A stretch of 60,382 nt of DNA, the filler included. It is 3 parts of 3 records of this genome, joined end to end, with 100 filler letters (N's around TTAATTAATTAA, not from the genome) between each part and the next. Parts side by side here need not be neighbours in the genome. Positions count along the whole stretch, not along the records: positions 1 to 17,989 come from SRR20825006_164; 2 more parts are not named here. One strand, 5' to 3'. A program made the translations under genes and the position numbers. The number at the start of each line of letters is the position of its first letter. Position 1 is the first letter of the stretch. A model generated the notes under the pieces. It did not search any database. It was not told the origin of the DNA and worked only from the letters and a program-made list of their open reading frames with translations. Shown piece by piece: positions 694 through 56,837 of the stretch.

Positions 694-855
694 ACGAATA
701 AATTTAAGTTAAACATTTAATTTTATATATAACTAAGTAAAGAATCACTCCCTTTTAAAAACATTCTCTTTATTCATTTCCTTTTATGGAGGCGATTATA
801 CATTAACTTAGCTCAGCATTTTGCTATGCTTAATCCCTTAATGAGGGTTTCATGC

Positions 856-2022: not shown

Positions 2023-2042
2023 ATCATATATTTTTCTTTAAC

Positions 2043-2079
2043 AAATATAATAAAAGTGATATGCACTTTTATTATATTT
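2043..2079. promoter_or_regulatory. Perfect palindrome, candidate NrtR-family operator overlapping divergent promoters
   Basis: AAATATAATAAAAGTG-ATATG-CACTTTTATTATATTT: 16-bp arms with a GT-N7-AC core. Minus-strand TATATTTG (2042-2049) matches the Bacteroidota -7 element TAnnTTTG for galK. Confidence 0.8.
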
Positions 2080-2105
2080 AATTAAAAAATTAAAAAAAAT
2101 TGTAA

Positions 2106-2810
2106 ATGACTTCATCAACTAGTAATTTTTACGCTGAAGAAAACAAAATATTTGTAGCAACAGACTGCATTGTATTTGGTTTTGATGATGGCGAATTAAA
2201 ACTTTTAATCTTTAAAAGACGTGTAGCACCACATGAAGGCGATTGGTCTTTAATAGGTAGCTTTGTTAAGCCTAGTGAAGATGTAGATGAAGCTGCTCAA
2301 AGGGTTTTAAAAGAAATTACTGGACTTGATAATGTGTTCTTTGAACAATCTAAAACCTATGGAAAAGCAGATAGAGATGAAGGTGCTCGTTGCATTTCTG
2401 TAGCGCAATTTGCACTTATTCGGATTGATGAATACGATAGAAAACTCACAGAAAAACACGGCGCTTATTGGTATAAACTTGAAGATCTACCAAAGCTTGT
2501 TTTAGATCATGACCAAATGGTAACCGATGCGCTTAGCAAATTAAGAAGTCGCGCCAAACACCAACCTATTGGTTTTGAACTACTTCCAGAAAAGTTTACG
2601 ATTCCACAGTTACAAAGTTTATACGAAGCTATTTTTCAAAGAAAACTAGATCCAGGAAATTTCAGAAAAAAAGTACTCTCTTTTGAAGTTCTAAAAAAAC
2701 AAGCTGAAAAAGATAAAAGTGCCTCAAAACGTGGCGCATACTATTATATGTTTGATCATCAAAAATATCAAAACCTATTAGAATCTGGTTATAACTTTGA
2801 AATTCTATAA
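2106..2810 (+). CDS. NrtR/AraR-family transcriptional regulator (Nudix domain plus C-terminal winged helix)
   Basis: VATDCIVFGFD, WSLIGSFV...EDVDEAAQRVLKEITG degenerate Nudix box, FELLPEKFTIPQLQSLYEAI...NFRKK winged helix. Confidence 0.88.
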   Translation: MTSSTSNFYAEENKIFVATDCIVFGFDDGELKLLIFKRRVAPHEGDWSLIGSFVKPSEDVDEAAQRVLKEITGLDNVFFEQSKTYGKADRDEGARCISVAQFALIRIDEYDRKLTEKHGAYWYKLEDLPKLVLDHDQMVTDALSKLRSRAKHQPIGFELLPEKFTIPQLQSLYEAIFQRKLDPGNFRKKVLSFEVLKKQAEKDKSASKRGAYYYMFDHQKYQNLLESGYNFEIL

Positions 2811-2846
2811 AAGATAACTTTTACAGCATACTTCTTTTAATTACTG

Positions 2847-2854
2847 TAAATTTG
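2847..2854 (+). promoter_or_regulatory. Bacteroidota -7 promoter element
   Basis: TAAATTTG matches TAnnTTTG, 23 nt upstream of the ATG at 2877. Confidence 0.55.
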
Positions 2855-2876
2855 CTACTGAAAAAGTAAGTTTAAA

Positions 2877-3524
2877 ATGAACAAGCAACTTCTATTGTCT
2901 ATTCTATGTCTTAGCTTTAGTGTTTTTTTAAGTGCTCAAGAAATAGCTTTATTAAAGTACAATGGTGGTGGAGACTGGTATGCAAACCCTACAGCGCTTC
3001 CAAATTTAATTGCTTTTTGTAATACTAATATTCACACTACCATAAAAAGTAAACCTGCTACTGTAGAAACTGGAAGTATCGATATTTTTCAATATCCTTT
3101 TATACATATGACTGGGCATGGAAATGTTTTTTTTTCGGAAGAAGAAGCTATAAACCTTAGAAAATACCTTCTTTCTGGTGGGTTTTTGCACATTGACGAC
3201 AATTACGGAATGGCTCCTTATTTAAAAAAAGAATTAGTTAAAGTTTTTCCTGATAAAGAACTAACAGAAATTCCTACCTCCCACCCTATCTTTAACGAAA
3301 CTTATAAATTCCCAAATGGACTCCCTAAAATACATGAGCACGACGGAAAACAGCCACAAGCATTGGGAATATTTGATAACAACAGACTAATTCTTCTTTT
3401 TACCTTTGAAAGTGATCTGGGAGATGGATGGGAAGATGAAGAAGTCCATAACGACCCTCAAGAAATCCGACAAAAAGCATTAAAAATGGGGGCTAACATA
3501 ATACAATACGCTTTTGAACATTAA
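2877..3524 (+). CDS. DUF4159-family secreted protein
   Basis: Signal peptide, KYNGGGDWY, YPFIHMTGHG, YLLSGGFLHIDDNYG, DLGDGWE, MGANII. Confidence 0.8.
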   Translation: MNKQLLLSILCLSFSVFLSAQEIALLKYNGGGDWYANPTALPNLIAFCNTNIHTTIKSKPATVETGSIDIFQYPFIHMTGHGNVFFSEEEAINLRKYLLSGGFLHIDDNYGMAPYLKKELVKVFPDKELTEIPTSHPIFNETYKFPNGLPKIHEHDGKQPQALGIFDNNRLILLFTFESDLGDGWEDEEVHNDPQEIRQKALKMGANIIQYAFEH

Positions 3525-3525
3525 A

Positions 3526-4035
3526 ATGACAACACAACTGGAGCATACTAATACTAACTTCTCGGAAAAACAATTTCCAATCACCATTATATGCGACCAT
3601 ATTACCAGCGCTGCAAACATAGGTGCTATTTTTAGGCTAGCAGATGCTTTTGGTGTAGAAAAAGTTATATTTGTAGGAAACGAGCCTGTTTTTACAAGAC
3701 GTATGCAAAAAACAGCTAGAGCAACTCATAAAACCGTTCCTTTTGAGCATCTTACAGAAGAAAATGATTGTATTGAATTTTTAAAAAAAGAAAAATATAC
3801 CATTATAGCTTTAGAAATAACAAATAATAGCACTTCTATTAATAACCTAAAAATTTCTAATAAGAATAAAACTGCTATTATTATCGGAAATGAAAATTAT
3901 GGAGTTTCTAAAAACCTCCTTTCTATTGCTAACCATACTACTCATATTGAGATGTTTGGAAAAAATAGCAGTATGAATTTAGCACAAGCTACAGCCATTT
4001 GCTTATATGAAGTAACCAATAATTATCAACTATAA
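3526..4035 (+). CDS. TrmH/SpoU-family RNA methyltransferase
   Basis: NIGAIFRLADAFG, IIIGNENYGVS and SSMNLAQA SPOUT motifs. ATG 3526 preferred over the overlapping TTG at 3514. Confidence 0.85.
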   Translation: MTTQLEHTNTNFSEKQFPITIICDHITSAANIGAIFRLADAFGVEKVIFVGNEPVFTRRMQKTARATHKTVPFEHLTEENDCIEFLKKEKYTIIALEITNNSTSINNLKISNKNKTAIIIGNENYGVSKNLLSIANHTTHIEMFGKNSSMNLAQATAICLYEVTNNYQL

Positions 4036-4164
4036 ATAATAAGACATTTTCCTTAATTTTATATTGAAATTGCTATTGTTTTAACAACTAGCAACACAAC
4101 TAAAAACTAACCTTTTCGATATTAAATATCGGATAAAACCCTAAAAGGGAACAACGTAATTAAA

Positions 4165-5265
4165 ATGGATTCTAAAACTATTTCTAACGGGATATTAAGA
4201 GCCCTAGCAACCATAATAGGAGTTTCGCTATTGCTCTTTTTTATATACAAAATCAAAGCAATAATAGCCTATATTATTATAGCCTTGGTAATTTCTTTAA
4301 TTGGAAGGCCAATTGTAAGGTTCTTACGAAAGAAATGTAAATTAAACGACAACGTTGCAGTAATTATTACCATGGTTATCATGATTTTATTTACCGTTGG
4401 AGTTATAAGCCTATTTGTACCTTTAATTATAGAGCAAGGAAAAAATCTTTCTTTGCTAAATATTGATAATTTAAGAGCTAGTTTACAAGACGTATATAGA
4501 GAGATTTCAGATTATTTCTCTGTTAGTAGATACAAAGTTGAGCAATCTATAGAAGAGTCTATAAAAACTTCAGAGTTTATTTCTAATATAGATTTATCTG
4601 CTATTCCAAATATGTTTAAATACATTGTTGGAGGAATAGGATCTCTTAGTGTTGCAATTTTTACGGTTATCTTTATATCATTTTTCTTTTTAAAAGATAG
4701 TCGCTTATTTCAAAACGGACTCTTAACTTTCATTCCCCCAGAGAACGAACAAAGCGTAATAAATTCCCTAGAAAAAATAAAAAATTTACTCTCACGATAT
4801 TTCATAGGATTATTACTTCAAATAGCTATATTATTTGTTATTTATACAGCCGTTTTAATCATCTTAGGAATAGACGATGCTATAGTAATTGCATTCCTTT
4901 GTGCGCTTTTAAATTTAGTACCATACATAGGTCCTTTAATTGGAGGGGTATTAATGATATCTTTAACGATGTCTAGTAATTTAGGAGCAGATTTTAGCAC
5001 CGTTATTTTACCAAAATCCATCTATGTTTTAATCGGATTCATGATAGGTCAACTTATAGATAACTTCTTTAGTCAGCCGCTAATTTTTTCAAATAGTGTA
5101 AAATCACATCCTCTAGAAATCTTCTTAGTTATTATTATTGCAGGAATGATTTTTGGTGCTTTCGGAATGGTATTAGCTGTACCCATATATACCGCTTTAA
5201 AAGTGGTTTTAAAGGAGTTTTTATCCGAAAATAAGATTGTTGGTAAGCTTACAAAAAACTTATAG
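4165..5265 (+). CDS. AI-2E family transporter
   Basis: Multiple TM helices, NLVPYIGP, QLIDNFFSQPLIFSNSVKSHPL, GMVLAVP. Confidence 0.85.
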   Translation: MDSKTISNGILRALATIIGVSLLLFFIYKIKAIIAYIIIALVISLIGRPIVRFLRKKCKLNDNVAVIITMVIMILFTVGVISLFVPLIIEQGKNLSLLNIDNLRASLQDVYREISDYFSVSRYKVEQSIEESIKTSEFISNIDLSAIPNMFKYIVGGIGSLSVAIFTVIFISFFFLKDSRLFQNGLLTFIPPENEQSVINSLEKIKNLLSRYFIGLLLQIAILFVIYTAVLIILGIDDAIVIAFLCALLNLVPYIGPLIGGVLMISLTMSSNLGADFSTVILPKSIYVLIGFMIGQLIDNFFSQPLIFSNSVKSHPLEIFLVIIIAGMIFGAFGMVLAVPIYTALKVVLKEFLSENKIVGKLTKNL

Positions 5266-5272
5266 TTTTACT

Positions 5273-6457
5273 TTGAATAAAGAAATATTAAATACTGGTA
5301 CACAATATTTTATAAATAAAAATATTAATACTGACATTTCGTCACTTTTACTAAAAGGTTTCGATTTAGAGGGAGTTGACACAAAAGAGGTTGTAGAACA
5401 AATTGAAGCTAAGAAAAAATCAGAAAAAAAACTTCCTACCTGGTTTAAAACTGACAAGATTTACTATCCTAACAAACTAAATATTGAACAAACCTCCTCA
5501 GAAATTACTGCTCACTACAAAGCCAGTTTAGTGAACGGAAAAAAACTAGTAGATCTTACTGGAGGATTTGGAGTCGACTCTTATTATTTTTCCAAACGTT
5601 TTAAAGAAGTTCTTCATTTTGAAATCAATGAAAATTTATCAAAAATAGCCACTCATAATTTTAAAGTTTTAGGTCAAAAAAACATCTTCACTTTTGCAGA
5701 GGACGGCATCTCTTTTCTTGAAAAAACAAAGGATAATTTTGATTGTATTTTTGTGGATCCTTCAAGAAGAGATAATAAAAAAAATAAAGTATTTTTACTA
5801 CAAGATTGTACACCTAATATGCAGCTTGTTTTACCAGTACTACTAAAAAAATCTCCTACTGTAATTGTAAAAACCTCTCCTCTACTCGATATTTCTAAAG
5901 GAATTGAAGAACTAAAAAAGGTAGTGGAAATTCATGTTGTTGCTGTTAATAATGATGTAAAAGAACTTCTTTGGATTATAAAAGACAAGAAAACTACCAC
6001 CCCTTTGATTAGAACCATCAATTTTTCAAAACATATAACAGAAGAATTTGATTTTCATTTAAATGAAGAAAGTAATACAAATACTGAGTTTTCGCTCCCA
6101 AAAAAGTATTTATACGAGCCCAATTCTGCAATTTTAAAAAGTGGCGGTTTTAATTCAATAGCAACAAAACTACACCTCTCTAAGCTCCACTCAAATACTC
6201 ATTTATACACTAATGACGAGCTAATTAACTTTCCAGGACGCTCCTTTATAATTAAAGACATTATTCCATACAACAAAAAAGCACTGAAGAAAATTCTTCC
6301 AGAAAACAAGGCCAATATTACCACTAGAAATTTCCCTGAAAGCGTTGCTCAAATTCGTAAAAAGACTAAAATTACAGATGGAGGAAACACCTACCTCTTC
6401 TTTTGTACTAATATTAATAACGAAAAAATTATTATTCTTTCTGAGAAAACAACATAA
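5273..6457 (+). CDS. Class I SAM-dependent methyltransferase with THUMP-like C-terminal domain
   Basis: EQTSSE, DLTGGFGVD, FVDPSRR, KTSPLLD, YLYEPNSAILKSG, ANITTRNFP. Start moved to TTG 5273 to avoid overlap. Confidence 0.8.
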   Translation: MNKEILNTGTQYFINKNINTDISSLLLKGFDLEGVDTKEVVEQIEAKKKSEKKLPTWFKTDKIYYPNKLNIEQTSSEITAHYKASLVNGKKLVDLTGGFGVDSYYFSKRFKEVLHFEINENLSKIATHNFKVLGQKNIFTFAEDGISFLEKTKDNFDCIFVDPSRRDNKKNKVFLLQDCTPNMQLVLPVLLKKSPTVIVKTSPLLDISKGIEELKKVVEIHVVAVNNDVKELLWIIKDKKTTTPLIRTINFSKHITEEFDFHLNEESNTNTEFSLPKKYLYEPNSAILKSGGFNSIATKLHLSKLHSNTHLYTNDELINFPGRSFIIKDIIPYNKKALKKILPENKANITTRNFPESVAQIRKKTKITDGGNTYLFFCTNINNEKIIILSEKTT

Positions 6458-6532
6458 TTGACTTCAAAATAAACAGCGTTAACGTACCTTATTCAATATT
6501 TTTGCTATTTTAGCAGATAAAATAGAAAGAAT

Positions 6533-7594
6533 TTGACAATTAAAGAAATAGCTAAGCTAGCAAATGTTTCTCTAGGAACCGTAGATAGAGTACTGCATAA
6601 ACGAGGAAAAGTATCTAAAGAGACTGAAAAAAAAGTGCTTGATATTATCGAAAAAGGTAATTATAAGCCAAATATATATGCTCGTGGTTTGGTTTTAAAC
6701 CGATCTTATAAAATAGCCGCACTTGTACCAAACTATAATAATGGAGAATATTGGGAGATGCCCTCTAAAGGCATTAAAATGGCGGAGAAAAATTTAAGTC
6801 AGTTTGGAATAAACCTAAGCATTCTATACTTCGATCAAAACTCAGTTTCCTCATTTACAGAAAAGGCAGAAGAACTTTTAAAACTCAAACCAGATGGGGT
6901 TATCCTAGCTCCAGTTATAAATTTTGAAGCAGTAAAGCTTACTAAAAAACTAGACGAAGCTAAAATCCCTTTTAGCCTTATTGATTCTAACATCCCTAAC
7001 AGTAACGCTTTGAGTTTTATTGGTCAGGATGCATTTCAAAGCGGGAAATTAGCTGCCAAACTATTATGTTCAGAAATTAATTCAAAAGGAACAATATCAA
7101 TCATTTCCATTAAGAATAATGAAAACCATAATAAAACTTTACAACAACGAATTGAAGGTTTTAAAGATTATATCTACAACAGCAATTTTATAGCAAATAT
7201 TACTTTAATAGAACACAACATTCATTTAGGAACTGCAAATTGGGAAGAAAACCTCACCCAAGCTTGTGCCCCAACCAATAATACTGTTGGAATATTTGTT
7301 CCCAGCTCCATGATACACCATGTTGCTAAATGTATTGAAAGTAATTTTGATACCATGAGCACTATAAAATTAGTAGGAAACGATTTAATTGCTAATAATG
7401 TAAAGTACTTAAAAAAGGGTATTATAAATTATCTAATTGGACAAAGACCTGAAAATCAAGGATATTTAGCTCTGGAGAGTTTCTATAAATATTTAGTGTT
7501 AGAGAAACAAGTTCCTCAAAAAAAATACCTCCCATTAGATATTATCACGCAAGAGAATTTAATGTATTACAATGATGATGTAGTTTCTAGTTAA
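6533..7594 (+). CDS. LacI-family transcriptional regulator (UxuR-like by context)
   Basis: TIKEIAKLANVSLGTVDRVLHKRGKVS helix-turn-helix, YKPNIYAR hinge, periplasmic-binding-protein fold. Sits upstream of a locus ending in uxuB-uxuA. Confidence 0.9.
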   Translation: MTIKEIAKLANVSLGTVDRVLHKRGKVSKETEKKVLDIIEKGNYKPNIYARGLVLNRSYKIAALVPNYNNGEYWEMPSKGIKMAEKNLSQFGINLSILYFDQNSVSSFTEKAEELLKLKPDGVILAPVINFEAVKLTKKLDEAKIPFSLIDSNIPNSNALSFIGQDAFQSGKLAAKLLCSEINSKGTISIISIKNNENHNKTLQQRIEGFKDYIYNSNFIANITLIEHNIHLGTANWEENLTQACAPTNNTVGIFVPSSMIHHVAKCIESNFDTMSTIKLVGNDLIANNVKYLKKGIINYLIGQRPENQGYLALESFYKYLVLEKQVPQKKYLPLDIITQENLMYYNDDVVSS

Positions 7595-7843
7595 TTATGG
7601 CTCGTTTATCTTTTATATACATTATATGATAATCTCAACTTTTTACCCTTATTTTTAATTAAGTAATAAAATATCTGTCAGTTTATTATATATTAAAAAA
7701 TGTTGTACGTACCTTATTTTAACATTCAAATTTATTTTTTTTCAAAAAAAACATTAACTTGGTCGATGTTTTCATATTAAAACCTGTATAAATTTCATTT
7801 AATCATTAATTTAAATCACATAGAATGAATCCTATTTAAAAAA

Positions 7844-7859
7844 ATGTGCACGTACACAT
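7844..7859. promoter_or_regulatory. Candidate LacI-type operator upstream of susC
   Basis: ATGTGCACGTACACAT near-palindrome with central CG. Related ACGTAC-containing sites at about 6476-6493 and 7701-7718. Confidence 0.6.
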
Positions 7860-7888
7860 AAAAACTAACTCTAATAAAACTTAAAATT

Positions 7889-10800
7889 ATGAAACACTTA
7901 AAACACCATGCATTGCATAATTCTAGTCCCTTTTTTAGGTATAAGAATCTATCTTTGCTATTTTTTATTATTAGTATAGGAATCGCCACACCCCTATCCG
8001 CATCTCCGCTTCAAGAGATTGATGTAACAGGAACCGTTATGGATGCTGAGGGCTTCCCGCTTCCTGGTGCTACTATTATTGAAAAAGGAACTCAAAACGG
8101 AACTCAAACAGATTTTGATGGTAATTTTCAATTATCTGTTTCCAATAAAAATGCTACGCTAGTTGTATCGTTTGTTGGTTTTTCTACTAAAGAAGTTCCC
8201 CTTTCAAACCAAAAAAATCTAACAATTACTTTAGAAACAGATGCAGCAGCTTTAGATGAAGTAGTTGTAATAGGTTACGGAACTCAAAAGAAAACAGATG
8301 TAACAGGCGCTATCTCTTCAATTTCTGGAGAAGATATAAATTCTACCAAAGAAGGAAATGCTTTTAACGCCATGGCTGGTAAGGTTGCTGGTTTAGATGT
8401 TGGCGTAACAAATGCTTCGCCAGGATCATCGCCAAGCTTATTGATTAGAGGAAGAAGTTCCCTTAATTTTTCTAATGAGCCTCTAATTGTTGTAGATGGA
8501 ATTCCTATGGAAGGAAGTTTAAACGACATAAACTCTGCTGATATTGCTTCTATGGAAGTATTAAAAGACGCTTCTTCTACTGCTATTTATGGAGCAAGAG
8601 GAGCAAATGGGGTTATCTTAATTACAACAAAAAGAGGGAAAACTGGAAAAGCCAAATTTACTTATGATACTTATTACGGTTTTGCAGAAGTACCAGAAAA
8701 TTACAAACTTCTTGATTCCGATGGTTATGTAAGTCTAAGACGTGAAGCAAGAAGAGCTGGACAAGAAGAAGAGCAAGGACTTATTCCGGGCACATTACCT
8801 TTACCCTCTATTGAAAGCTCTCTAGAACCGCTTCAATTAGCTGCATATCAAGATGGGGTTAATACAGATTTCCTTGATTTAGGAACTCGTGCAGGACAAC
8901 AGGTTAATCACCAATTAGGCGTTTCTGGGGGTTCAGAAAAAATAAGATACAACCTTTCTTTGAGTTATTTTGATCAAAACGGGGTTTATAATTTAGCAGA
9001 TTATGAGCGTTACACTTTTAGAGCCAATCTCGATATTAATGCTACCGATAAATTAAAAATAGGTTTATCTCAACAGGCAAATTTTTCAAAAACAAACAAT
9101 TACAATCCTTTAGCAGATTTAATGAGCCAGCCTCCTCTTGTTACTCCTTTTGATGAAGATGGGGTTGCCACACTGGATCCATTAGCTGACGGACTTAATT
9201 GGAATCCTTTGAGTAATGAAACTCCTGGAAATTATATTGATGAAACTATAAATTACCGCTACTTTGCAAATATTTTTGCTAGTTATCAAATTCTAGATGG
9301 ATTAAAATATACCTTAAATGTTCAACCTCAGTTTGAATCGCTTACCGATAATGATTTCCGCGCTTCTCTTTCAGATAGCCGTACAGGCGGACTTTCACAA
9401 GCTTCAAAAGCAACAAGGGTAAATACAGCTTATACTATTGAGAATATCTTAAATTATTCAAAAATGATTGGCGACAATCATTCTATTGACGCTACCTTCC
9501 TCTACAGTTTTCAAGAAACTAAAAGAGATTATTTATACTTACAGGTTTCTGGACTTGCAAACGACAGTCAGACATTTAACAATTTAAGTGATGGCTCTCA
9601 AGTAGACAATCGTGATAGTTCTTTACAGACCGAAGGTTGGGTTTCTTACATGAGTCGTATTAATTATGGTTTTAAAAACAAGTATCTCCTTACACTTACT
9701 GGTCGTTATGATGGTTCTTCAAAATTGTCTAAAGGAAAAAAATGGGGCTTCTTCCCTTCTGCTTCTTTTGCATGGAGAATTATTCAAGAGGATTTCCTAA
9801 AAAACCAAACTGTTCTAAGCGATCTTAAACTTAGAACTGGTTACGGGCAGGTAGGTCGTAATCCAATTGCTCCCTACGCTACCTTTGGAAGCATTAAAAG
9901 ATTAGAAAACTCTTTTGGTGGAAATCCTGCTTTTGGTTTTCAACCAGAAGACATTGCAAATCCAGATCTTAAATGGGAAACCACTACCACTTTTGACATC
10001 GGTTTAGATTATGCTTTTGCTAAAAATAGAATTGCGGGGAGTATTGATTATTACACAGGAAAAACAACCGATTTATTATTAAATAGAGTTTTACCTTCTA
10101 CTTCTGGATATTCTTCTATTCTTCAAAATGTTGGAGAAACTAAAAACTCTGGGATTGAATTAACATTAAGTACTGTTAATATTGAAACTGATAAGTTTAG
10201 ATGGACAACCGATTTTAATTTTTCAGCTAATAAAAGTGAAATCGTAAAACTTTTGGATAGCCAATCGGATGATGTTGGAAATGGATGGTTTATTGGGCAG
10301 CCATTAAGTGTTTATTACGACCGAGTTTTTAACGGAATCTGGCAGCTTGATGAAAATGATGTTGCAAACAGCTACGGAAGAAGACCGGGAGATATAAAAC
10401 TTGCCGATTTAAATAACGATGGAATGCTTAATGATGATGACCGAAAAATATTAGGGCAATTAGACCCAAAATGGATTGGTGGTTTTACCAGTAAAATGGA
10501 GTATTCAGGTTTTGATTTTTTAGTAACACTTTATACACGCCAAGGAAACTTAACTCGCTCACGAGCATTAGAAAATGTAACAATTTTTGGTAGAAATAAC
10601 GATTTAGACCTTAATTATTGGACTCCAGAAAACCCAAGTAACGAATATCCACGTCCTAATATTAACAGAGAAAGACCATTGGATAATGGTGTGTTAAGTT
10701 ATGTAGATGCTTCATTTGTAAGAATCCGAAACATTACATTTGGTTATACACTTAACAAAGAAGTAAGCGAGATTTTAGGTTTGGAAAGATTGCGTTTGTA

Positions 10801-10930
10801 CGCTTCTGCACAAAACCCATTCCTATTTACAAAATCTGATCTGAAAGGTTTTGATCCTGAACTTGGTAGTGGTGATAATTTTATAGCATCGCCAAGAACC
10901 ATTTTATTTGGTTTAAACGTTGCTTTTTAA
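7889..10930 (+). CDS. susC: SusC/RagA TonB-dependent transporter
   Basis: [66 protein letters not shown], C-terminal F. Confidence 0.95.
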   Translation: [1013 protein letters not shown]

Positions 10931-10950
10931 AGAAATTAAATAAAATAGTC

Positions 10951-12558
10951 ATGAAAAAAAATATACTATACATATTCGCATTAATCTCACTCATTTCTTG
11001 TAGTGATATTTTAGATGAAGAACTTACAGGCGACCTAACGGGCGATGGAGTTTTTATAGATGAAGAAGGAATCAACTTCGCCTTAAACGGAGCATATGCA
11101 TCCCTTGGGCTCTTTATAGGAAACAGCCCAGATGGCAGAGACGGCACTAATAGAGAAACCGGATGGACGCTTATTGCCTTTGGAACAGACACCTATACAA
11201 ACGCATCAGACGGTGGCTTTAAATATTTTAATACCTATGATTCCGACCTTAATGCTAGCTCCCAAATTGTAAGTGAGTCTTGGAATGAATTCTATAAAGG
11301 AATTAATGCTGCCAATACAGTTATTAGCAGAGCGCCAGAGGCAATCCCTAATAACCAGCAGAAACTCACAGAAGTTCTTGCTGAAGCTCGCTTTTTAAGA
11401 GCCTACTATTATTATTGGTTGGCTCGTATATGGGGACCTGTCCATTATACTGATGAAGAAACCACAACAGCCGAAACAGAAGCTCATAGAATGGCTTTAG
11501 ATGAATTGTATCCAAAAATAATTGAAGATTTGGAGTACGCAGAAGCAAATTTACCAGGAGTTCAAGACGATTTTGGAAGGGCTACTTCTTGGGCAGCAAA
11601 AGCCACTTTAGCCGATTTGTATCTTACACGAAAAAATTACGATCTTGCAGCTAGTTATGCTGAAGATATTATAGATAAAGGACCATTTTCTTTGGTAAGT
11701 ACGTATGCAGAACTATGGAATCTTGAAAATGAAGAAAATAGTGAAGTAATTTGGTCTACACAATTTGCAGACGAATTAGAGTACGATAACGGCGGAAACC
11801 CTGCACATCTTTTCTTTCTAATGGAGTACGACAAATTACCAGGAATGCAAAGAGATGTTGTTAACGGAAGACCATGGAAAAGGTTTAGACCTACAAATTA
11901 TTTATTAAATTTATACGATATGGAAGATCAAAGGTACGATGGCACATTTACAACGGTATTTTATGCAAATAATCCAGATTCTGCTCCTTCAGGAGTAGCT
12001 GTTGGAGATACTGCTGTATACCTACCTCGTGTACCTTTATCTCAAGCTGAAAAAGATACTAAACCTTATGGAGCAAGTATTTATAATCAAGATGAATATA
12101 CCGAGAAAATATATCCTTCTAGCAAAAAATGGGTACAACCAAACAGAGTCTCTACAAATGAAGAATCTGGAAGTAGAGATTTTATAGCGTATCGTCTAGC
12201 GGAGATCTATTTAATTGCTGCTGAAGCATATGCTTTAAAAGCAACTCCCAATCAAACTAAAGCTCTTTACTATCTAGACGAAGTACGCAAAAGAGCTTAT
12301 GGAGTAGATAACGTATCCGATTTGCCAGTTATTTCTGCAGTAGACCTTAATGTTATTCTTGAAGAAAGAGCAAAAGAGTTGGCTCAAGAAGGAAAAAGAT
12401 GGTTTGATTTAGTGCGTACCGGAAAACTAGTAGAACGCGTAAAAATGCACAACCCACAGGCCGCTTCTTTTATTCAAGAGTATCATAGTTTACGACCTAT
12501 ACCTTTAACACAAATAGATAGAACCTCTAACGAATTTCCACAAAACCCCGGATATTAA
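10951..12558 (+). CDS. susD: SusD/RagB lipoprotein
   Basis: Lipobox LISC, AEARFLRAYYY, RLAEIYLIAAEA, ERAKELAQEGKRWFDLVR, QNPGY. Confidence 0.95.
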   Translation: MKKNILYIFALISLISCSDILDEELTGDLTGDGVFIDEEGINFALNGAYASLGLFIGNSPDGRDGTNRETGWTLIAFGTDTYTNASDGGFKYFNTYDSDLNASSQIVSESWNEFYKGINAANTVISRAPEAIPNNQQKLTEVLAEARFLRAYYYYWLARIWGPVHYTDEETTTAETEAHRMALDELYPKIIEDLEYAEANLPGVQDDFGRATSWAAKATLADLYLTRKNYDLAASYAEDIIDKGPFSLVSTYAELWNLENEENSEVIWSTQFADELEYDNGGNPAHLFFLMEYDKLPGMQRDVVNGRPWKRFRPTNYLLNLYDMEDQRYDGTFTTVFYANNPDSAPSGVAVGDTAVYLPRVPLSQAEKDTKPYGASIYNQDEYTEKIYPSSKKWVQPNRVSTNEESGSRDFIAYRLAEIYLIAAEAYALKATPNQTKALYYLDEVRKRAYGVDNVSDLPVISAVDLNVILEERAKELAQEGKRWFDLVRTGKLVERVKMHNPQAASFIQEYHSLRPIPLTQIDRTSNEFPQNPGY

Positions 12559-12575
12559 TATTCAAAACATGAAAA

Positions 12576-12634
12576 TTTAATGAAACATCCATGATTAACA
12601 ATAAAACTTACTATAATTTGGATGTTTCATTAAA
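12576..12634. repeat. Perfect 16-bp inverted repeat between susD and the DUF1080 gene
   Basis: TTTAATGAAACATCCA (12576-12591), 27-nt loop, TGGATGTTTCATTAAA (12619-12634). Confidence 0.8.
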
Positions 12635-12660
12635 CCATTAAAAACAATAAATACAAACAA

Positions 12661-14043
12661 ATGAAATTAAGAGTTAAAAATTACCAACTTTATGCCTTAG
12701 CTATTGGTCTTACCATTGGATTATCAAGCTGCCAAGAGAGCGCCCCAAAAGACAACACTCCTTGGACTCCATTGTTTAATGGAGAAAATCTAAATGGCTG
12801 GACTCAAAAAGGAGGGGAAGCTAAATACAGAGTCGAAGACGGAAAAGTTATTGGTAGTACAGTCCATAATACTCCAAACTCGTTTATGACTACCAATAAA
12901 ATGTATGACGATTTTATATTAGAACTCGATTATAAAGTAGATTCTACTATGAATTCTGGAATTCAAATCCGCAGTAACAGCACTCCTCAATATCAAAACG
13001 GACGCGTACATGGGTATCAAATAGAAATTGATCCTTCAGATAGAGCATGGAGCGCTGGTATTTATGACGAAGGTAGACGTGGTTGGCTTTTCCCTATTGA
13101 AAATGATAAAAATGCACAACAAGCATTTAAACAAGGAGATTGGAATCATTACCGAATTGAAGCTATTGGAGATACTATAAAAACATGGATTAATGGAGTT
13201 CCGGCAGCACATTTAATTGACGGGAAAACACACTCCGGATTCATAGCATTACAAGTGCATTCCATTGGAAAAGATGCTAAAGAAGGTACAGAAATTATGT
13301 GGAAAAATGTAAATATTCTTACCGATAGTTTAAGTAAATACAGTACAAAAACTCCTGTAGAACCTGTAGTCACTAAAAATAATTTAACCATAGACGAAAA
13401 GAAAAATGGTTGGGAAATGCTTTGGGACGGAAAAACTTCTAATGGATGGAGAGGCGCAAAACTTGAAGAATTTCCAGATAAAGGTTGGGTTATTGAAAAC
13501 GGTATCTTAACTATAATGGAAAGTGATGGAAAAGAATCTGCTGCAGCAGGAGATATTGTAACAAAAAAACTATATCAAGATTTTGAGCTTAAAGTAGATT
13601 TTAAACTTACAAAAGGAGCTAATAGCGGTATTAAATATTATGTTGATACTGAAATTAATAAAGGGCCAGGCTCCTCTATTGGTTTGGAATATCAAATTCT
13701 TGACGACGATAATCATCCAGATGCTAAATTAGGAAATCACGACGGAAGTAGAACTGTAGCTTCTTTGTATGATTTAATTCAGGCAGATCCAAACAAACCA
13801 ATCCACCCTGTTGGAGAATGGAATACTGCTAGAATTGTTTCAAAAGACAATCATGTGGAGCATTGGTTAAACGGAGTAAAAGTGCTTGAATATGAAAGAG
13901 GAAGTAAAGAGTATCGTAAACTGGTTTCAGAAAGTAAATATAAAAAATGGAAGAAATTTGGAGAGCTTGAAAAAGGAAGTATTCTTTTACAAGATCATGG
14001 AAATCGTGTTTCATATAAAAATATTAAAATTAAATCCTTATAA
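12661..14043 (+). CDS. Tandem two-domain DUF1080 (3-keto-glycoside hydratase/hydrolase family) lipoprotein
   Basis: Lipobox LSSC. Two repeats of LF(N/D)G..L.GW / NSGI / YQI / WN / (I)xLQxH, typical of DUF1080. Confidence 0.85.
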   Translation: MKLRVKNYQLYALAIGLTIGLSSCQESAPKDNTPWTPLFNGENLNGWTQKGGEAKYRVEDGKVIGSTVHNTPNSFMTTNKMYDDFILELDYKVDSTMNSGIQIRSNSTPQYQNGRVHGYQIEIDPSDRAWSAGIYDEGRRGWLFPIENDKNAQQAFKQGDWNHYRIEAIGDTIKTWINGVPAAHLIDGKTHSGFIALQVHSIGKDAKEGTEIMWKNVNILTDSLSKYSTKTPVEPVVTKNNLTIDEKKNGWEMLWDGKTSNGWRGAKLEEFPDKGWVIENGILTIMESDGKESAAAGDIVTKKLYQDFELKVDFKLTKGANSGIKYYVDTEINKGPGSSIGLEYQILDDDNHPDAKLGNHDGSRTVASLYDLIQADPNKPIHPVGEWNTARIVSKDNHVEHWLNGVKVLEYERGSKEYRKLVSESKYKKWKKFGELEKGSILLQDHGNRVSYKNIKIKSL

Positions 14044-14053
14044 ACCCTAAATA

Positions 14054-15394
14054 ATGACAACTAGAAGAAACTTTATAAAAAACACCGTATTAAGTAGTAC
14101 TGCTATTGCTGTTGGAAGCTCTGTAATGGGAATGCCTGCAAGTAGTTACAGAAGAATTATTGGATCCAACGACCGCTTAAATGTTGCTATTGCAGGTTTA
14201 GGGAGAAGATTAGGCGCTTATTATGATCCGATTGCACAAAAAGAGAGTAATGTAAACTTGATGTATTTGTGTGACGTTATGGAAAGTCAGAGGCTTAGAG
14301 CTAAGGAGAATTTTTCTAAAATAATTGACTATACACCAAAACTAGAAAACGACATCCGAAAAGTTATTGACGATAAAAAAGTAGATGTCCTCATAAATGC
14401 AACACCAGACCATTGGCATGCACCAGGCTCCATAATGGCGTTAAAAGCTGGAAAAAATGTATATGTTGAAAAACCATGTAGCCATAATATGAATGAGAAT
14501 GAACTTCTGGTAGAAGCTTCTAAAAAATTCAATAAAGTGGTACAAATGGGGAATCAGCAGCGCTCTTCTCCTCACACCATTGAAATTATTAAAGAAATTC
14601 ATAATGGAGTTATAGGAAATCCATACAAAGCTGTTGCTTTCTATAACAATTCAAGAGGAGAAGTGCCTCTTCAAACAAAAGCTGCCATTCCACAAGGTTT
14701 AGATTGGGAATTATGGCAAGGACCAGCAGTGCATAGAGAATATACAGATAATACATGGGACTATAACTGGCATTGGTACGGATGGAATTACGGAACTGCA
14801 GAAACAGGAAATAATGCTACCCATGAGCTAGATGTTGCACGCTGGGCATTACAAGTAGATTTTCCAGAATATGCAGAAGTAGAAGCCGATAAAAGACATT
14901 TTGTAAACGACGGTTGGGAAATGTATGATACCATGGAGGCTACTTTTAAATTTTCTGACAATAAAATTATTCAATGGGATGGTAAAAGTAGAAATGGATA
15001 TAGCACCTATGGAGGTGGACGCGGAACTCTTATTTACGGAAGTGAAGGAACTGTTTATGTTGACCGTGAAAAATATATGTTAATGGATAGAAGTGGAAAA
15101 TTAGTTAAAGAAGTTAATTCTAATTCTAATGAAGCTGGAACTGCTCTTGGAGGAGGCGGAAGCATGTCCACTATGCATGTGGTAAACTTCTTTGAAACCA
15201 TCCGCGGAAAAGAAAAATTGAACGCTCCAATTGACGATGCTAGTATAAGTATGGCTATGGTACATTATGCTAATGTTGCTTATAGAATTGGAAAAGGTTT
15301 CAAGATAAACAATAAAAACGGCCGTATGCTCGACGAAAATGCCATGAAATTATGGGGTCGAGAGTATGAAAAAGGCTGGGAACCTACCTTATAA
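14054..15394 (+). CDS. Tat-exported Gfo/Idh/MocA oxidoreductase
   Basis: TRRNFIK twin-arginine signal, ATPDHWHA, VYVEKP, VQMGNQQRS, DWELWQGPA. Confidence 0.88.
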   Translation: MTTRRNFIKNTVLSSTAIAVGSSVMGMPASSYRRIIGSNDRLNVAIAGLGRRLGAYYDPIAQKESNVNLMYLCDVMESQRLRAKENFSKIIDYTPKLENDIRKVIDDKKVDVLINATPDHWHAPGSIMALKAGKNVYVEKPCSHNMNENELLVEASKKFNKVVQMGNQQRSSPHTIEIIKEIHNGVIGNPYKAVAFYNNSRGEVPLQTKAAIPQGLDWELWQGPAVHREYTDNTWDYNWHWYGWNYGTAETGNNATHELDVARWALQVDFPEYAEVEADKRHFVNDGWEMYDTMEATFKFSDNKIIQWDGKSRNGYSTYGGGRGTLIYGSEGTVYVDREKYMLMDRSGKLVKEVNSNSNEAGTALGGGGSMSTMHVVNFFETIRGKEKLNAPIDDASISMAMVHYANVAYRIGKGFKINNKNGRMLDENAMKLWGREYEKGWEPTL

Positions 15395-15424
15395 TTAGAA
15401 ATTGCACAAAAATAAAAATTGCTT

Positions 15425-15757
15425 ATGAATGATTTTTTTATAACGAAAGAAAACACTTGGGAGGATGTAGACAAAGGGATTAGTAGACAGATAACCAATT
15501 ATAATAAAGACTTAATGATGGTAAAAGTTAAGTTTGAAAAAGGAGCTATTGGATACAAACATCACCATATACACTCGCAAGCATCTTACGTAGCTTCAGG
15601 AAAATTTGAGGTTACTATAGATAATAACACCAAAACATTAGAAACCGGCGATACTTTCTTTGCCAACCCTAATTTAGTCCACGGTGTAGAATGTATAGAA
15701 GCAGGCGTTCTCATTGATGTTTTTAACCCTGCTCGTGAAGATTTTTTATCACAATAA
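15425..15757 (+). CDS. kdgF: KdgF-like cupin (linearises unsaturated monouronates)
   Basis: LMMVKVKFEKGAIG..HHHIHSQASYVASG, HGVECIEAGVLIDVFNPAREDFL. Confidence 0.75.
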   Translation: MNDFFITKENTWEDVDKGISRQITNYNKDLMMVKVKFEKGAIGYKHHHIHSQASYVASGKFEVTIDNNTKTLETGDTFFANPNLVHGVECIEAGVLIDVFNPAREDFLSQ

Positions 15758-15768
15758 ATAATAAATAA

Positions 15769-16575
15769 ATGGATCAACTCAAAAATAAAGTTGCTATAAT
15801 AACTGGAGGGAATGGAGTTTTAGGAGGCGCAATAGCCAAAGGCCTTGCATTACAAAAAGTAAAAGTTGCAATTCTAGGAAGAACAGAAAAAACAGTTTTA
15901 GATAGCGTAAAAGAAATTAAAGAAAACGGTGGAGAAGCCATTGCGCTTATTGCAGATGTTTTAAACCAAAAAGAGTTAGAAATTGCTAAAACAAAAGTTC
16001 TTGATACTTGGGGAAGCATAGATATTTTGGTAAATGCTGCTGGTGGAAACCGAAAAGGAGCCACCATAGCGCCAGATGAAAACTTTTTTGATTTATCGTT
16101 GGAGGATTTTGACAAAGTAAACGATCTTAATTTTAAAGGAACTGTGCTTCCTAGTTTTGTTTTCGGTAAAATAATGGCAAACAATGGTAGAGGAAGTATT
16201 ATTAATATTTCATCTATGGCAGCACAACAAGCTATTACCCGTGTGGTAGGTTACAGTGCAAGTAAAGCAGCTGTAGATAATTTTACAAAGTGGCTTGCTG
16301 TAGAAATGGCTTTAAAATATGGAGATAAAATTCGGGTAAATGCTATCGCTCCAGGCTTTTTTATTGGAGAACAAAACAGAGCCTTGCTTTTAAATACAGA
16401 CGGAACTCTTACTCAACGCGGACAAACAATTGTTGCTCAAACTCCTATGAAACGCTTTGGAGAACCCGAAGAATTACAAGGAGTAACAAATTGGTTAGCT
16501 GGAGATAATTCTTCCTTTGTAACAGGTGTTGTAATTCCTATTGATGGCGGATTTAGCGCTTTTAGCGGAGTGTAA
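15769..16575 (+). CDS. uxuB: SDR-type D-mannonate oxidoreductase / fructuronate reductase
   Basis: TGGNGVLG, NAAGGN, YSASK catalytic motif, RVNAIAPGFF..EQNRALL. Immediately upstream of uxuA. Confidence 0.8.
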   Translation: MDQLKNKVAIITGGNGVLGGAIAKGLALQKVKVAILGRTEKTVLDSVKEIKENGGEAIALIADVLNQKELEIAKTKVLDTWGSIDILVNAAGGNRKGATIAPDENFFDLSLEDFDKVNDLNFKGTVLPSFVFGKIMANNGRGSIINISSMAAQQAITRVVGYSASKAAVDNFTKWLAVEMALKYGDKIRVNAIAPGFFIGEQNRALLLNTDGTLTQRGQTIVAQTPMKRFGEPEELQGVTNWLAGDNSSFVTGVVIPIDGGFSAFSGV

Positions 16576-16585
16576 TAAAGTTATT

Positions 16586-16750
16586 TTGAATGTTGAATGT
16601 TGAATTGTTGGGTTTGCATCTTTTTGAAGTCGCAAAACTGTTTTTTGCCAAATCGCTTATTCATTGAACTTTCAACACTAAACTTTCAACACTAAACTTT
16701 AAACCTTCAACATTTAAACTTTTAACTTTAAACTTTTTAACTATCAACTT
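16586..16750. repeat. Heptamer tandem repeats in opposite orientations
   Basis: (TTGAATG)x2-3 at about 16586-16606 and about 11 AACTTTC/AACACTA/AACTTTA-like units at 16667-16750. Confidence 0.75.
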
Positions 16751-16757
16751 ACTATAA

Positions 16758-17945
16758 ATGAATACCAAATTAGAACAGACATGGCGTTGGTATGGGCCAA
16801 AAGACCCAGTATCGCTATCAGACATAAAGCAAGCAGGGGCAACAGGCATTGTTTCTGCCTTACACCATATTCCCAATGGAGAAGTTTGGACTGTAGATGA
16901 AATAATGGCACACAAAAAAACAATTGAAGCTGCAGGTCTTTCTTGGTCTGTGGTAGAAAGTGTTCCTATTCATGAAAGTATAAAAACTCAAAGTGGAGAT
17001 TATATAGAGTACATCAATAATTACAAGCAAACTATTACAAACCTAGGGGAATGTGGCATAGATACTGTTTGTTATAATTTCATGCCTGTTTTAGATTGGA
17101 CTCGTACAGATTTGGATTATTTATTAGAAGATGGGGCTACGGCACTTCGGTTTGATAAAACAGCTTTTGCTGCCTTTGAACTTTTTTTATTGAAAAGACC
17201 AGACGCTGAAAAAGATTATACCGAAGCCGAAATTGCTGCTGCTAATTCCTGTATAAATAATTTAACTTCAGAAGAAAAAAAACTACTTGTTACTAATATT
17301 ATTGCAGGACTTCCTGGTGCTGAAGAAGGATATTCACTGGAAGAATTTAATGAAATATTAGAAACTTATAAAGATATTGATGCTGAAAAACTAAAACAAC
17401 ATCTTTTCTTCTTTCTAGAAAATATAATTCCTTCCGCAGAAAAAGCAGGAGTTAATATGTGTATCCATCCAGACGACCCGCCCTACCCTATCCTTGGACT
17501 TCCAAGAGTGGTTAGTACAGAACAAGATATTTTAGCTATTTATAAAGCTGTTGACAGTAAGAATAACGGACTCACATTTTGTACCGGATCTTTTGGAGTT
17601 AGAGCGGATAATAATTTAGCTGAAATGATAAAAAATCTTGGAGATCGTATTCACTTTATTCATTTAAGAAGTACTAAAAGAGATGAGCAAGGGAATTTTC
17701 ATGAAGCAAATCATCTAGAGGGAGATGTTGATATGTTTAGTGTAATGAAAGCATTGATTGCGCAACAACAACAAAGAATTTCTGAAGGAAGAAAAGATAT
17801 TAGAATGCCTTTTCGACCAGATCACGGACATAAAATGTTAGACGATTTAAAGAAACATACAAACCCTGGTTATTCTGCTATTGGAAGACTCCGCGGCTTA
17901 GCAGAATTAAGAGGTTTAGAATTAGGAATAAGAAAAACCTCTTAA
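16758..17945 (+). CDS. uxuA: Mannonate dehydratase
   Basis: [65 protein letters not shown]. Confidence 0.96.
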
Positions 17946-17965
17946 TAGAGTTACTCAAAAAAATC

Positions 17966-17989
17966 AACTACCTCGAGGCAAGCCTACGA
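17966..17989 (+). repeat. Left end of a dispersed MITE/REP-like repeat, cut by the contig end
   Basis: AACTACCTCGAGGCAAGCCTACGA resembles the copies at 42990 and 45915 (GTAAACTACC...GAGGCAAGCCT). Confidence 0.55.
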
Positions 17990-18089
17990 NNNNNNNNNNN
18001 NNNNNNNNNNNNNNNNNNNNNNNNNNNNNNNNNTTAATTAATTAANNNNNNNNNNNNNNNNNNNNNNNNNNNNNNNNNNNNNNNNNNNN
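17990..18089. other. Artificial contig linker
   Basis: 44 N + TTAATTAATTAA (stops in all six frames) + 44 N, 100 nt in total. Confidence 0.97.
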
Positions 18090-39229: not shown

Positions 39230-39329
39230 NNNNNNNNNNNNNNNNNNNNNNNNNNNNNNNNNNNNNNNNNNNNTTAATTAATTAANNNNNNNNNNNNNNN
39301 NNNNNNNNNNNNNNNNNNNNNNNNNNNNN
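39230..39329. other. Artificial contig linker
   Basis: Same structure as the first linker: 44 N + TTAATTAATTAA + 44 N. Confidence 0.97.
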
Positions 39330-51423: not shown

Positions 51424-51464
51424 TTTTTATTTAGTTTTTAATAATATAATCTAGCCTATGCTAT

Positions 51465-51472
51465 CAAATATA
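51465..51472 (-). promoter_or_regulatory. Bacteroidota -7 element for the GMC operon
   Basis: CAAATATA reads TATATTTG on the minus strand. Confidence 0.5.
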
Positions 51473-51590
51473 TAAATTTTAAGTTATTTTTTAGATAAAC
51501 CAAAAAAAGTATAATTTAGAGAACTTATATATTTATCGGGGGTTAAGCAGGTTTTTCAACCCACCAACAACAACCTAAATTGCTTATTCA

Positions 51591-52568: not shown

Positions 52569-52584
52569 TCTCAAAATACCATAC

Positions 52585-53814: not shown

Positions 53815-53816
53815 CG

Positions 53817-54968: not shown

Positions 54969-54976
54969 TCTTAAAA

Positions 54977-54998
54977 AAGCGTCTCTTAGGAGGCGCTT
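54977..54998 (+). terminator. Intra-operon hairpin
   Basis: AAGCGTCTC-TTAG-GAGGCGCTT followed by a T-rich stretch. Confidence 0.5.
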
Positions 54999-55025
54999 GA
55001 TTTTTTATAAAATAAATCAACTACT

Positions 55026-56078: not shown

Positions 56079-56088
56079 ACCACAAACA

Positions 56089-56835: not shown

Positions 56836-56837
56836 TC

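Follow-up and report, generated by a model that had tools for sequence, protein, structure and literature searches.

Related oxidative systems and the gene run of the window

The locus discussed here, positions 6533–17945 of a 60,382-nucleotide stretch of DNA (the window), encodes an oxidoreductase of the Gfo/Idh/MocA family (Gfo) with a twin-arginine translocation (Tat) motif next to a two-domain DUF1080 lipoprotein, within a run of genes for glycan import and hexuronate catabolism. The closest described systems are AL1–AL5 of Alistipes and BT2156–BT2160 of Bacteroides thetaiotaomicron (Nasseri et al., bioRxiv 10.1101/2024.03.25.586180). According to the accessible part of that preprint, the Tat-Gfo enzyme AL3/BT3 is a C3 oxidase whose tightly bound NAD is recycled by reduction of the 3-keto sugar, the DUF1080 protein AL2/BT2 is a 3-keto-alpha-glucoside 1,2-lyase and 3-keto-2-hydroxyglucal hydratase, and the TIM barrel AL1/BT1 is a beta-specific lyase. 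The P2B11 cluster of a Gram-positive gut bacterium (structure 8TDI) uses the 3-keto route on alpha- and beta-glucuronides with two Gfo enzymes and two isomerase-type TIM barrels; it has no DUF1080 protein, and the same part of the preprint notes no transporter or regulator nearby. In the LacABC/DUF1080 3-ketolactose route of Caulobacter and Pedobacter, known from genetic and gene-neighbourhood evidence (Price et al. 2022, PMC9007349), periplasmic C3 oxidation is likewise followed by a DUF1080 step. There, however, a membrane-bound LacABC-type dehydrogenase takes the place of the Tat-Gfo enzyme, the route acts on neutral compounds (lactose, salicin, raffinose), and the accessible part of the article makes no link to uronate genes. 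Classical polysaccharide utilization loci (PULs) for pectin and glucuronoxylan, finally, use GH28, GH88/GH105 and GH67/GH115 enzymes to feed the pathway UxaC-UxuB-UxuA-KdgK-Eda.

The run comprises eight genes, all on the plus strand. Their order as given in a first-pass annotation of this DNA was recovered from open reading frames and profile families; only its "tandem DUF1080" had to be revised, from two genes to a single gene encoding two domains:

6533–7594, plus strand: LacI-family repressor (PF00356, 5e-16; PF13407, 2.1e-35)
7889–10930, plus strand: SusC/RagA TonB-dependent transporter (TIGR04056, 887.4 bits, cut-off 368)
10951–12558, plus strand: SusD-family lipoprotein (PF07980, 3.5e-35; PF14322, 9.4e-25; lipobox ...LISC)
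12661–14043, plus strand: two-domain DUF1080 lipoprotein, 460 amino acids (two PF06439 stretches, 304 bits)
14054–15394, plus strand: Tat-exported Gfo/Idh/MocA oxidoreductase (PF01408 and others; TRRNFIK motif)
15419–15757, plus strand: KdgF-like cupin, 112 amino acids, cytoplasmic, without signal peptide (PF07883, 1e-12)
15769–16575, plus strand: D-mannonate oxidoreductase UxuB of the short-chain dehydrogenase/reductase type (NF006132, 368.5 bits, cut-off 281)
16758–17945, plus strand: mannonate dehydratase UxuA (TIGR00695, 609.1 bits, cut-off 199.55)

The adjacent susC and susD genes, 20 nucleotides (nt) apart, provide the SusC/SusD pair that is the hallmark of a PUL. Further downstream the gaps are 24 nt between gfo and kdgF, 11 nt between kdgF and uxuB and 182 nt between uxuB and uxuA. 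The cupin matches KdgF structures over residues 4–111/112 (5FPX, 7.9e-28; 5FPZ, 1.1e-27; 5FQ0, 8.6e-25) and is on these matches classified as KdgF-like, homologous to KdgF of Yersinia and Halomonas.

We propose that an importer (SusC/D), a periplasmic non-hydrolytic glycoside-cleaving pair and glucuronate-branch catabolism are joined here in one LacI-controlled unit, and that a hexuronate is released. In our estimate this reading has an even chance of being correct. We infer every catalytic step by homology, and the substrate from gene context only. SusC/D would import an oligosaccharide or glycoside. The Tat-Gfo enzyme, carrying a tightly bound NAD, would oxidise C3 of the non-reducing-end sugar as AL3 does, and the DUF1080 lipoprotein would, like AL2, eliminate the aglycone across C1-C2 and then hydrate the resulting glycal. 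Reduction of the 3-keto sugar by the Gfo enzyme would complete a net redox-neutral "hydrolysis". Judged from its neighbours, the released sugar would be a hexuronate, D-glucuronate above all, which would enter the cell via a tripartite ATP-independent periplasmic (TRAP) transporter encoded past the contig break and then pass through UxaC, UxuB, UxuA, KdgK and Eda. The gene content suggests that in this marine flavobacterium an exported oxidise-then-cut pair may free sugar acids from glycosides without a classical glycosidase.

As in the AL/BT systems, the Tat-Gfo gene lies beside a gene for a DUF1080-family lipoprotein, both products being periplasmic, and the same exo-acting oxidise-eliminate-hydrate-reduce logic would be expected; the C-terminal domain of the DUF1080 protein keeps eight BT2 residues. 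In contrast to these systems, the locus lacks an AL1-type TIM-barrel lyase, a second cytosolic Gfo and a transporter of the major facilitator superfamily (MFS). Its DUF1080 protein has two domains, with the N-terminal one of another subtype, its Gfo falls far below the BT_2158 equivalog cut-off, and it combines SusC/D and hexuronate catabolism under LacI. A TIM barrel of the AL1/BT2156 type was found neither in 6533–17945 nor in the reference scaffold (see below) up to its second PUL. Among relatives, Galbibacter mesophilus has such a barrel after dctM (8TCT/8TCD at 1e-19 to 1e-21), and others occur in Fodinibius and in a locus designated L054. From the P2B11 cluster the locus differs in having no TIM barrel and in a Gfo that does not match 8TDI at E ≤1e-3. 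It shares SusC/D, the KdgF cupin, the TRAP transporter and the isomerase pathway with classical PULs, but its LacI unit has no Koshland-type glycosidase or lyase, and the DUF1080/Gfo pair would provide the only candidate bond-breaking enzymes.

The first-pass annotation regarded the locus as a candidate for an undescribed system, a uronic-acid variant of the 3-keto pathway. It is less new than this, since the P2B11 glucuronide cluster and the oxidation of glucuronides by AL3 have been published (bioRxiv 10.1101/2024.03.25.586180, as far as accessible). The AL/BT chemistry is already known, as is its use on glucuronides via P2B11 and via AL3 together with P2B11 lyases. What sets the locus apart is the two-domain DUF1080 lipoprotein, the absence of a TIM-barrel lyase in this species, the import by SusC/D and the recurrent fusion to hexuronate catabolism and TRAP genes under one LacI operator. 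A literature search outside subscription journals, the printed Nasseri study among the latter, yielded no paper that links DUF1080 or Tat-Gfo proteins to hexuronate operons; the supplements of the preprint may bear on DUF1080-uronide activity.

The DUF1080 protein consists of an N domain (residues ~35–232) and a C domain (~250–460) behind a lipobox, LSSC, at residues 21–24. Both domains align with PDB entry 4JQT, a full-length two-domain homologue of 431 residues deposited by structural genomics as a "putative glycosyl hydrolase" (E 4e-162). The C domain aligns with 8TDA, 8RR2, 9FBE and 3OSD, structures of BT2157/AL2, at E about 1e-37. The accessible part of the preprint lists E103, N134, E164, Q166, Y190, K245, Q273 and H275 as conserved in BT2 (bioRxiv 10.1101/2024.03.25.586180). 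Mapped by hand via a HMMER alignment to 3OSD/BT2157 (offset 25), this set is fully kept in the C domain (8/8) as E292, N321, E343, Q345, Y370, K426, Q444 and H446. Among the aligned homologues E292 occurs in 56/61 and each of the other seven in 61/61. By its conserved residues the C domain is assigned to the BT2157/AL2-like lyase/hydratase type of DUF1080.

The N domain belongs to a different subtype, with 3IMM as its best separate PDB match (5e-8). It deviates from the BT2 set in that Q120-x-E122 is swapped relative to E-x-Q, F144 replaces Tyr and the region of Lys245 is missing. Nevertheless it has an invariant polar set of its own in 61/61 sequences: N98, R104, Y119, Q120, E122, D124, Y135, D136, E137, R139, R140, W142, N162, R165, E167, Q198 and H200. 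The domain is thus strongly constrained, and probably it is catalytic or binds a ligand. In Porifericola (L061, 10787–11869) a DUF6807 gene directly follows the DUF1080 gene, and a 34%-identical DUF6807 protein is encoded in locus L030 of a Bacteroidales metagenome-assembled genome (MAG).

The N-terminus of the Gfo enzyme, MTTRRNFIK, reads as a twin-arginine motif. The enzyme aligns with AL3 (8TDF/8TDH) over residues 39–303 (E 2.5e-26; ~35% identical over two thirds of the length), and it keeps the EKP motif as well as the equivalents of Gln161 and His252 of AL3. None of the 43 PDB sequences that it matches at E ≤1e-3 is named an alpha-N-acetylgalactosaminidase, the GH109 type, for which solved structures exist. 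By sequence it is a homologue of AL3/BT2158, probably a distant member of the same kind of enzyme, and an orthologue of no characterised one. The earlier assignment of both proteins to the 3-keto route stands insofar as they are homologues of AL3/BT2158 and AL2/BT2157; its uronide substrate is drawn from gene context alone.

Linkage to hexuronate catabolism

Three further features are relevant for the regulation and the extent of the unit:

6477–6491, plus strand: half-site-like motif upstream of lacI (ACGTACCTTA core at 6482)
7845–7858, palindromic: 14-bp candidate operator TGTGCACGTACACA, 31 nt before the ATG of susC
17968–17989, plus strand: first 22 nt of a dispersed ~100-nt repeat with matches in the reference genome, at the contig break point

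The window joins three contigs, and the LacI gene run sits on contig 1 (1–17989). This contig is 99.3% identical to scaffold NZ_JH651380.1 of Galbibacter orientalis DSM 19592 (locus L001, genome G002), and this reference genome stood in for the genome of the window strain. As the first-pass annotation had cautioned, the contig stops 44 nt past the end of uxuA, where an N run begins at 17990. This end is an assembly break and not a biological end, because its last 22 nt belong to the dispersed repeat. Past the break, DSM 19592 continues on the same strand with uxaC (PF02614, 3e-211), a PfkB kinase gene (kdgK), a gene for a 2-keto-3-deoxy-6-phosphogluconate aldolase (eda) and dctP-dctQ-dctM. Hence the members of the hexuronate isomerase pathway lie in one locus, UxuB and UxuA in the window and UxaC, KdgK and Eda beyond the break. 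A mannitol-dehydrogenase-type uxaB and altronate dehydratase (uxaA) come next, and then a second lacI on the opposite strand and susC-susD-DUF4861-GH88 family-pectinesterase (CE8)-GDSL esterase. For the TRAP binding protein, matches include many DctP proteins of solved structure (best 4N8Y, 6e-78); their entry names give no ligand, and several of them presumably bind glucuronate or galacturonate.

LacI orthologues, 55–90% identical, head the unit in the related loci L002–L004, L019 and L023. In 7/7 loci a single copy of the palindrome TGTG(T/C)ACGTACACA lies between the lacI orthologue and the first gene of the operon. It is followed by susC in the window, L001, L003 and L004; in G. mesophilus and Joostella, which are without SusC/D, the next gene encodes the DUF1080 protein. 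In L019 the palindrome precedes a series of genes continuing into the DUF1080 gene. SusC/D therefore constitutes an optional insertion in an operon of lacI, the two-domain DUF1080 gene, gfo, hexuronate and TRAP genes, because the palindrome precedes either susC or, where SusC/D is missing, the DUF1080 gene. The half-site-like motif upstream of lacI is a possible site of LacI autoregulation; its 10-mer is repeated at 7707 and also precedes lacI in L001, L002 and L023.

An initial candidate for the shared operator, TGTGYAATCGATTRCACA upstream of uxaC in L001, was rejected, as no copy exists in the window. It marks a separate unit and was seen again only before kduI in G. pacificus. There and in G. 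orientalis a second LacI-type palindrome, TGTG(C/T)AATCGATTACA(C/T)A, precedes kduI-kduD-uxaC (L003, 15338–15355) and uxaC (L001, 15540–15557), respectively. This second palindrome is missing from the continuous operons of G. mesophilus and Joostella, and no copy turned up in the downstream pectin PUL stretch L082.

For the gene neighbourhood, 80 loci encoding relatives of the two-domain protein were mapped by blastp against the window proteins and a neighbour panel, with Pfam checks. In most of them the DUF1080 and Gfo genes are adjacent. A locus was labelled as hexuronate-linked if it had uxaC, uxuA, uxuB, kdgK, eda, UxaE, altronate dehydratase or TRAP genes, or a uxuB-PfkB-6-phosphogluconate dehydrogenase-LarA-like set. 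Such genes occur in the examined flanks of 17/80 loci, from several taxonomic orders: Galbibacter (4 species), Joostella, a Flavobacteriaceae MAG (L019), Algoriphagus aquimarinus, Fodinibius (Balneolota), a Chitinophagaceae MAG whose locus adjoins GH10 and GH43, six Dysgonomonadaceae or related MAGs or isolates, Porifericola and L044. Members of the Flavobacteriia, Cytophagia, Bacteroidia and Balneolota thus share the arrangement. Just past the 10-kb flank, Algoriphagus yeomjeoni has the order DUF1080-gfo-susC (42%)-susD (38%)-susC-susD-lacI-uxaC-uxuB-uxuA, and the SusC beside the pair in Algoriphagus is 42–44% identical to that of the window. Operon-tight spacing is found in four lineages (gaps in nt in parentheses, negative for overlaps):

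G. mesophilus: gfo (23) uxuA (5) uxaC ... dctM (119) TIM barrel
L019: gfo (3) second gfo (1) uxaC
L054: TIM barrel (79) two-domain DUF1080 (40) uxaC (-4) dctP
L051: uxuB (23) PfkB (22) 6-phosphogluconate dehydrogenase .. LarA-like (64) gfo (13) two-domain DUF1080 (-8) gfo

A quick maximum-likelihood tree (IQ-TREE) was computed for the 61 loci with a full-length protein, leaving out 19 partial ones. Hexuronate labels are carried by 15/61 rows, and well-supported branches force at least six label changes. In an even, random sample of 301 Bacteroidota genomes, 43 encode the full-length two-domain protein, and in six of these (4/32 genera) UxaC lies on the same strand within 10 kb. Roughly 0.2 genomes would be expected by chance, so the linkage is about 25-fold enriched over what is itself a rough estimate (20 kb out of 4 Mb). 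Anywhere in the genome, UxaC is encoded in 40/43 genomes with the two-domain protein vs 63/258 others, a contrast that is inflated by lifestyle and kinship. Given the operators in 7/7 loci, the operon-tight gaps and the recurrence in the four taxa named above, the coupling of the DUF1080/Gfo pair to hexuronate catabolism is no peculiarity of a single genome. The connection with uronate catabolism that the first-pass annotation had drawn from one contig held up in this survey, with the seven palindromes, gaps of 1–40 nt to uxuA or uxaC and the 17/80 loci.

Two of the related arrangements deserve mention in their own right. In the Dysgonomonadaceae operons (L049, L051–L054, L046) the DUF1080 gene lies inside a set of uxuB, a PfkB kinase gene, 6-phosphogluconate dehydrogenase and a LarA-like gene, with uxaC, UxaE and TRAP genes nearby. 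This composition suggests a hexuronate route by mannonate-to-gluconate epimerisation and 6-phosphogluconate instead of UxuA/KdgK/Eda. In Fodinibius sediminis (L042, 1–14160) susC-susD are accompanied by genes for an FG-GAP/ASPIC protein, a TIM barrel, a 402-residue protein, a further TIM barrel, the two-domain DUF1080 protein, Gfo and UxaE, with uxuB and altronate dehydratase opposite. It is a fuller uronate locus without a classical glycosidase in another phylum, the Balneolota.

Released sugar and competing explanations

Among the hexuronates, glucuronate would be favoured over galacturonate because uxaC and uxuB, with uxuA, are most constantly fused to the pair, because AL3 requires the gluco arrangement at C3 and C4 and does not accept galactosides, and because AL3 oxidises glucuronides (bioRxiv 10.1101/2024.03.25.586180, accessible part). 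It would also be favoured because GH67 and GH115 were not found in G. orientalis, G. mesophilus or Joostella, nor a GH88 orthologue in G. mesophilus.

Several observations weigh against the release of a hexuronate by the pair as proposed above. According to the same part of the preprint, AL3 needed the isomerase-type lyases of P2B11, and not DUF1080, to finish the cleavage of glucuronides. The sugar-binding residues Arg192, Trp195 and Asp248 of AL3 are replaced in the window Gfo by Asn, a gap and Asn, respectively. Its score with the NCBIfam model NF058561 (BT_2158_fam) is 140.5 bits against a cut-off of 750, and the P2B11 glucuronide-3-dehydrogenase 8TDI is not among its 43 PDB matches. In G. 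orientalis, uxaC and the genes after it form a second unit with a different operator behind a 558-nt gap. GH78- and GH92-like genes surround the pair in genome G001, of another genus, where the uxu genes map to a different contig, next to a pectin PUL. The association of the two-domain protein with UxaC at the level of genomes is confounded by lifestyle and kinship.

Classical enzymes count on the same side. The first-pass annotation described a glycosidase-free PUL and suggested a profile search for domains of carbohydrate-active enzymes (CAZymes). With Pfam in place of dbCAN, none of the eight window proteins matched a glycoside hydrolase, lyase or esterase family. "Glycosidase-free" is therefore true of the LacI unit, and it is not true of the island, because the GH88-family/CE8/GDSL pectin-type PUL, under its own LacI, follows 12–19 kb downstream in the reference scaffold and the G. 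orientalis genome encodes three GH28 enzymes at other places. The annotation had also named routine occurrence of hydrolases or lyases at orthologous loci as evidence against itself, and this was found in part. Defining orthologous pairs by a Gfo at least 58% identical to that of the window (29 loci), 14 have classical CAZymes or sulfatases nearby (GH78-like, GH88, GH92, GH29, GH115, GH28, GH43, GH2, GH97, sulfatases, SASA/GDSL esterases), and in the other 15 none was found by the neighbour panel and partial Pfam scans. In the loci rich in such enzymes the pair may remove some other sugar.

This leads to the strongest competing explanation, in which the pair removes a neutral or other non-uronate cap from acidic oligosaccharides, such as fragments of pectin, ulvan or glucuronoxylan, and lies with uronate genes only owing to the uronate-rich remainder of these molecules, with classical enzymes elsewhere freeing the uronate. 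It would agree with the characterised AL/BT enzymes, which in the accessible part of the preprint act mainly on gluco-configured neutral glycosides, with the GH78-like, GH88, GH92, GH29 and sulfatase genes around the 14 orthologous pairs, and with the pectin-type PUL and GH28 genes of G. orientalis. It would also agree with Christiangramia crocea, which has the pair (Gfo 76% identical) and in which no UxaC was found by protein and family search. However, in G. mesophilus and Joostella a hexuronate operon that includes a TRAP transporter begins with the pair, SusC/D, a GH88 orthologue and GH67/GH115 were not found in these genomes, and the unit contains no neutral-sugar catabolic gene. We consider the neutral cap unlikely, but to be taken seriously. 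That the SusC/D-DUF1080-Gfo unit serves an unrelated glycoside and merely abuts a hexuronate operon, without a shared substrate, would explain why 37/61 tree rows, for example Eudoraea, have no uronate neighbour at all, why UxaC is close in only the six sampled genomes mentioned above and why uxaC of G. orientalis has its own operator. Gaps of 1–40 nt to uxuA, uxaC or dctP in four separate lineages, the single LacI operator at the head of the fused unit in all seven loci, the repeated label changes on the tree and the enrichment over the rough chance estimate make such a coincidence improbable.

An even less probable explanation is that the DUF1080 protein is a true hydrolase with a GH16-like fold, comparable to the endo-xanthanase THTE_1561 of Thermogutta, and cuts an acidic beta-glucan-type polymer, while Gfo has another role. 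Endo-glucanase/xanthanase activity of a DUF1080 protein is indeed reported in the accessible part of PMC10881899, and glucuronic acid is part of xanthan. On the other hand, the near-constant adjacency to a Tat-Gfo gene fits a lyase/hydratase role, all eight BT2 active-site residues are kept, and the GH16 catalytic motif is missing in BT2/AL2 (bioRxiv 10.1101/2024.03.25.586180, accessible part).

Returning to the release of a hexuronate, a more far-reaching version would be that the two-domain DUF1080 protein and Tat-Gfo form a self-sufficient periplasmic substitute for a glucuronidase, with the N and C domains together accounting for the lyase and hydratase reactions on both anomers of 3-keto-uronides. 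This can be offered only tentatively and is rather doubtful. If it were true, the AL1-type TIM barrel and all Koshland glucuronidases would be dispensable, hexuronate operons would be explained in genomes in which no GH67, GH115 or GH88 was found, and a widespread LacI-controlled "oxidative uronide" regulon would exist across Bacteroidota.

Many glycans of marine and plant origin, among them ulvan, glucuronoxylan, gum and capsule polymers, carry uronic acids as caps or branches, and the removal of these acids is usually credited to GH2, GH67, GH79, GH115 or GH88/105. If an oxidative DUF1080/Gfo pair performs this step in the periplasm, CAZyme-based predictions of degraders overlook a route. 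In that case the very large DUF1080 and Tat-Gfo families of Bacteroidota, Planctomycetota and Verrucomicrobiota would gain a concrete substrate class, and a function could be assigned to the N-type DUF1080 domain. The locus is well suited to clean tests, since the type strain is in culture, the operon is small, an operator has been predicted, and SusC/D is present in some natural variants and missing from others.

Assembly and minor features of the window

The contigs occupy 1–17989, 18090–39229 and 39330–60382 and are joined by N spacers at 17990–18089 and 39230–39329, which carry the linker ttaattaattaa. Contigs 2 and 3 are 95–97% identical to G001 and 65–75% to G002. Since contig 1 resembles G. 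orientalis and contigs 2 and 3 resemble G001, the assembly or bin mixes two organisms from different genera, and only contig 1 bears on the LacI unit.

The repeat at the end of contig 1 is a structured intergenic element of ~100 nt with hairpin modules (56 matches in G002; fold z = -4.0). In L001 it covers 9802–9905 and 15300–15430. DSM 19592 has a copy between susD and the DUF1080 gene that the window strain lacks. One further element lies within the gene run:

16586–16750, no strand assigned: uxuB-uxuA spacer with inverted heptamer arrays (TTGAATG x3.4, AACTTTA x about 10), 14 nt longer than in L001 (DSM 19592)

These arrays may form a long hairpin or a length-variable element. No Rfam family was found in 6300–17989, and scans for sigma-70 promoters (32 vs 19.7 +/- 14) and terminators (4 vs 3.5) did not exceed shuffled sequences. 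To the left of lacI lie housekeeping genes (DUF4159, SpoU methylase, AI-2E transporter, THUMP methyltransferase).

At ≥99% identity, contigs from four marine runs match parts of susD, of the DUF1080 gene and of gfo, kdgF, uxuB and uxuA, and a single contig of 765 nt spans gfo-kdgF. The RNA nature of that run is a guess, and assembled contigs can demonstrate neither a transcript nor its level or induction; they were not used as evidence.

On contig 3, which stems from the other organism, positions 49714–57641 hold a separate BT2156–2160-like module. It consists of a glucose-methanol-choline (GMC) oxidoreductase gene on the minus strand, a TIM barrel, an MFS/nucleoside-symporter-type transporter, a Gfo/Idh/MocA protein, another TIM barrel and two consecutive single-domain DUF1080 genes.

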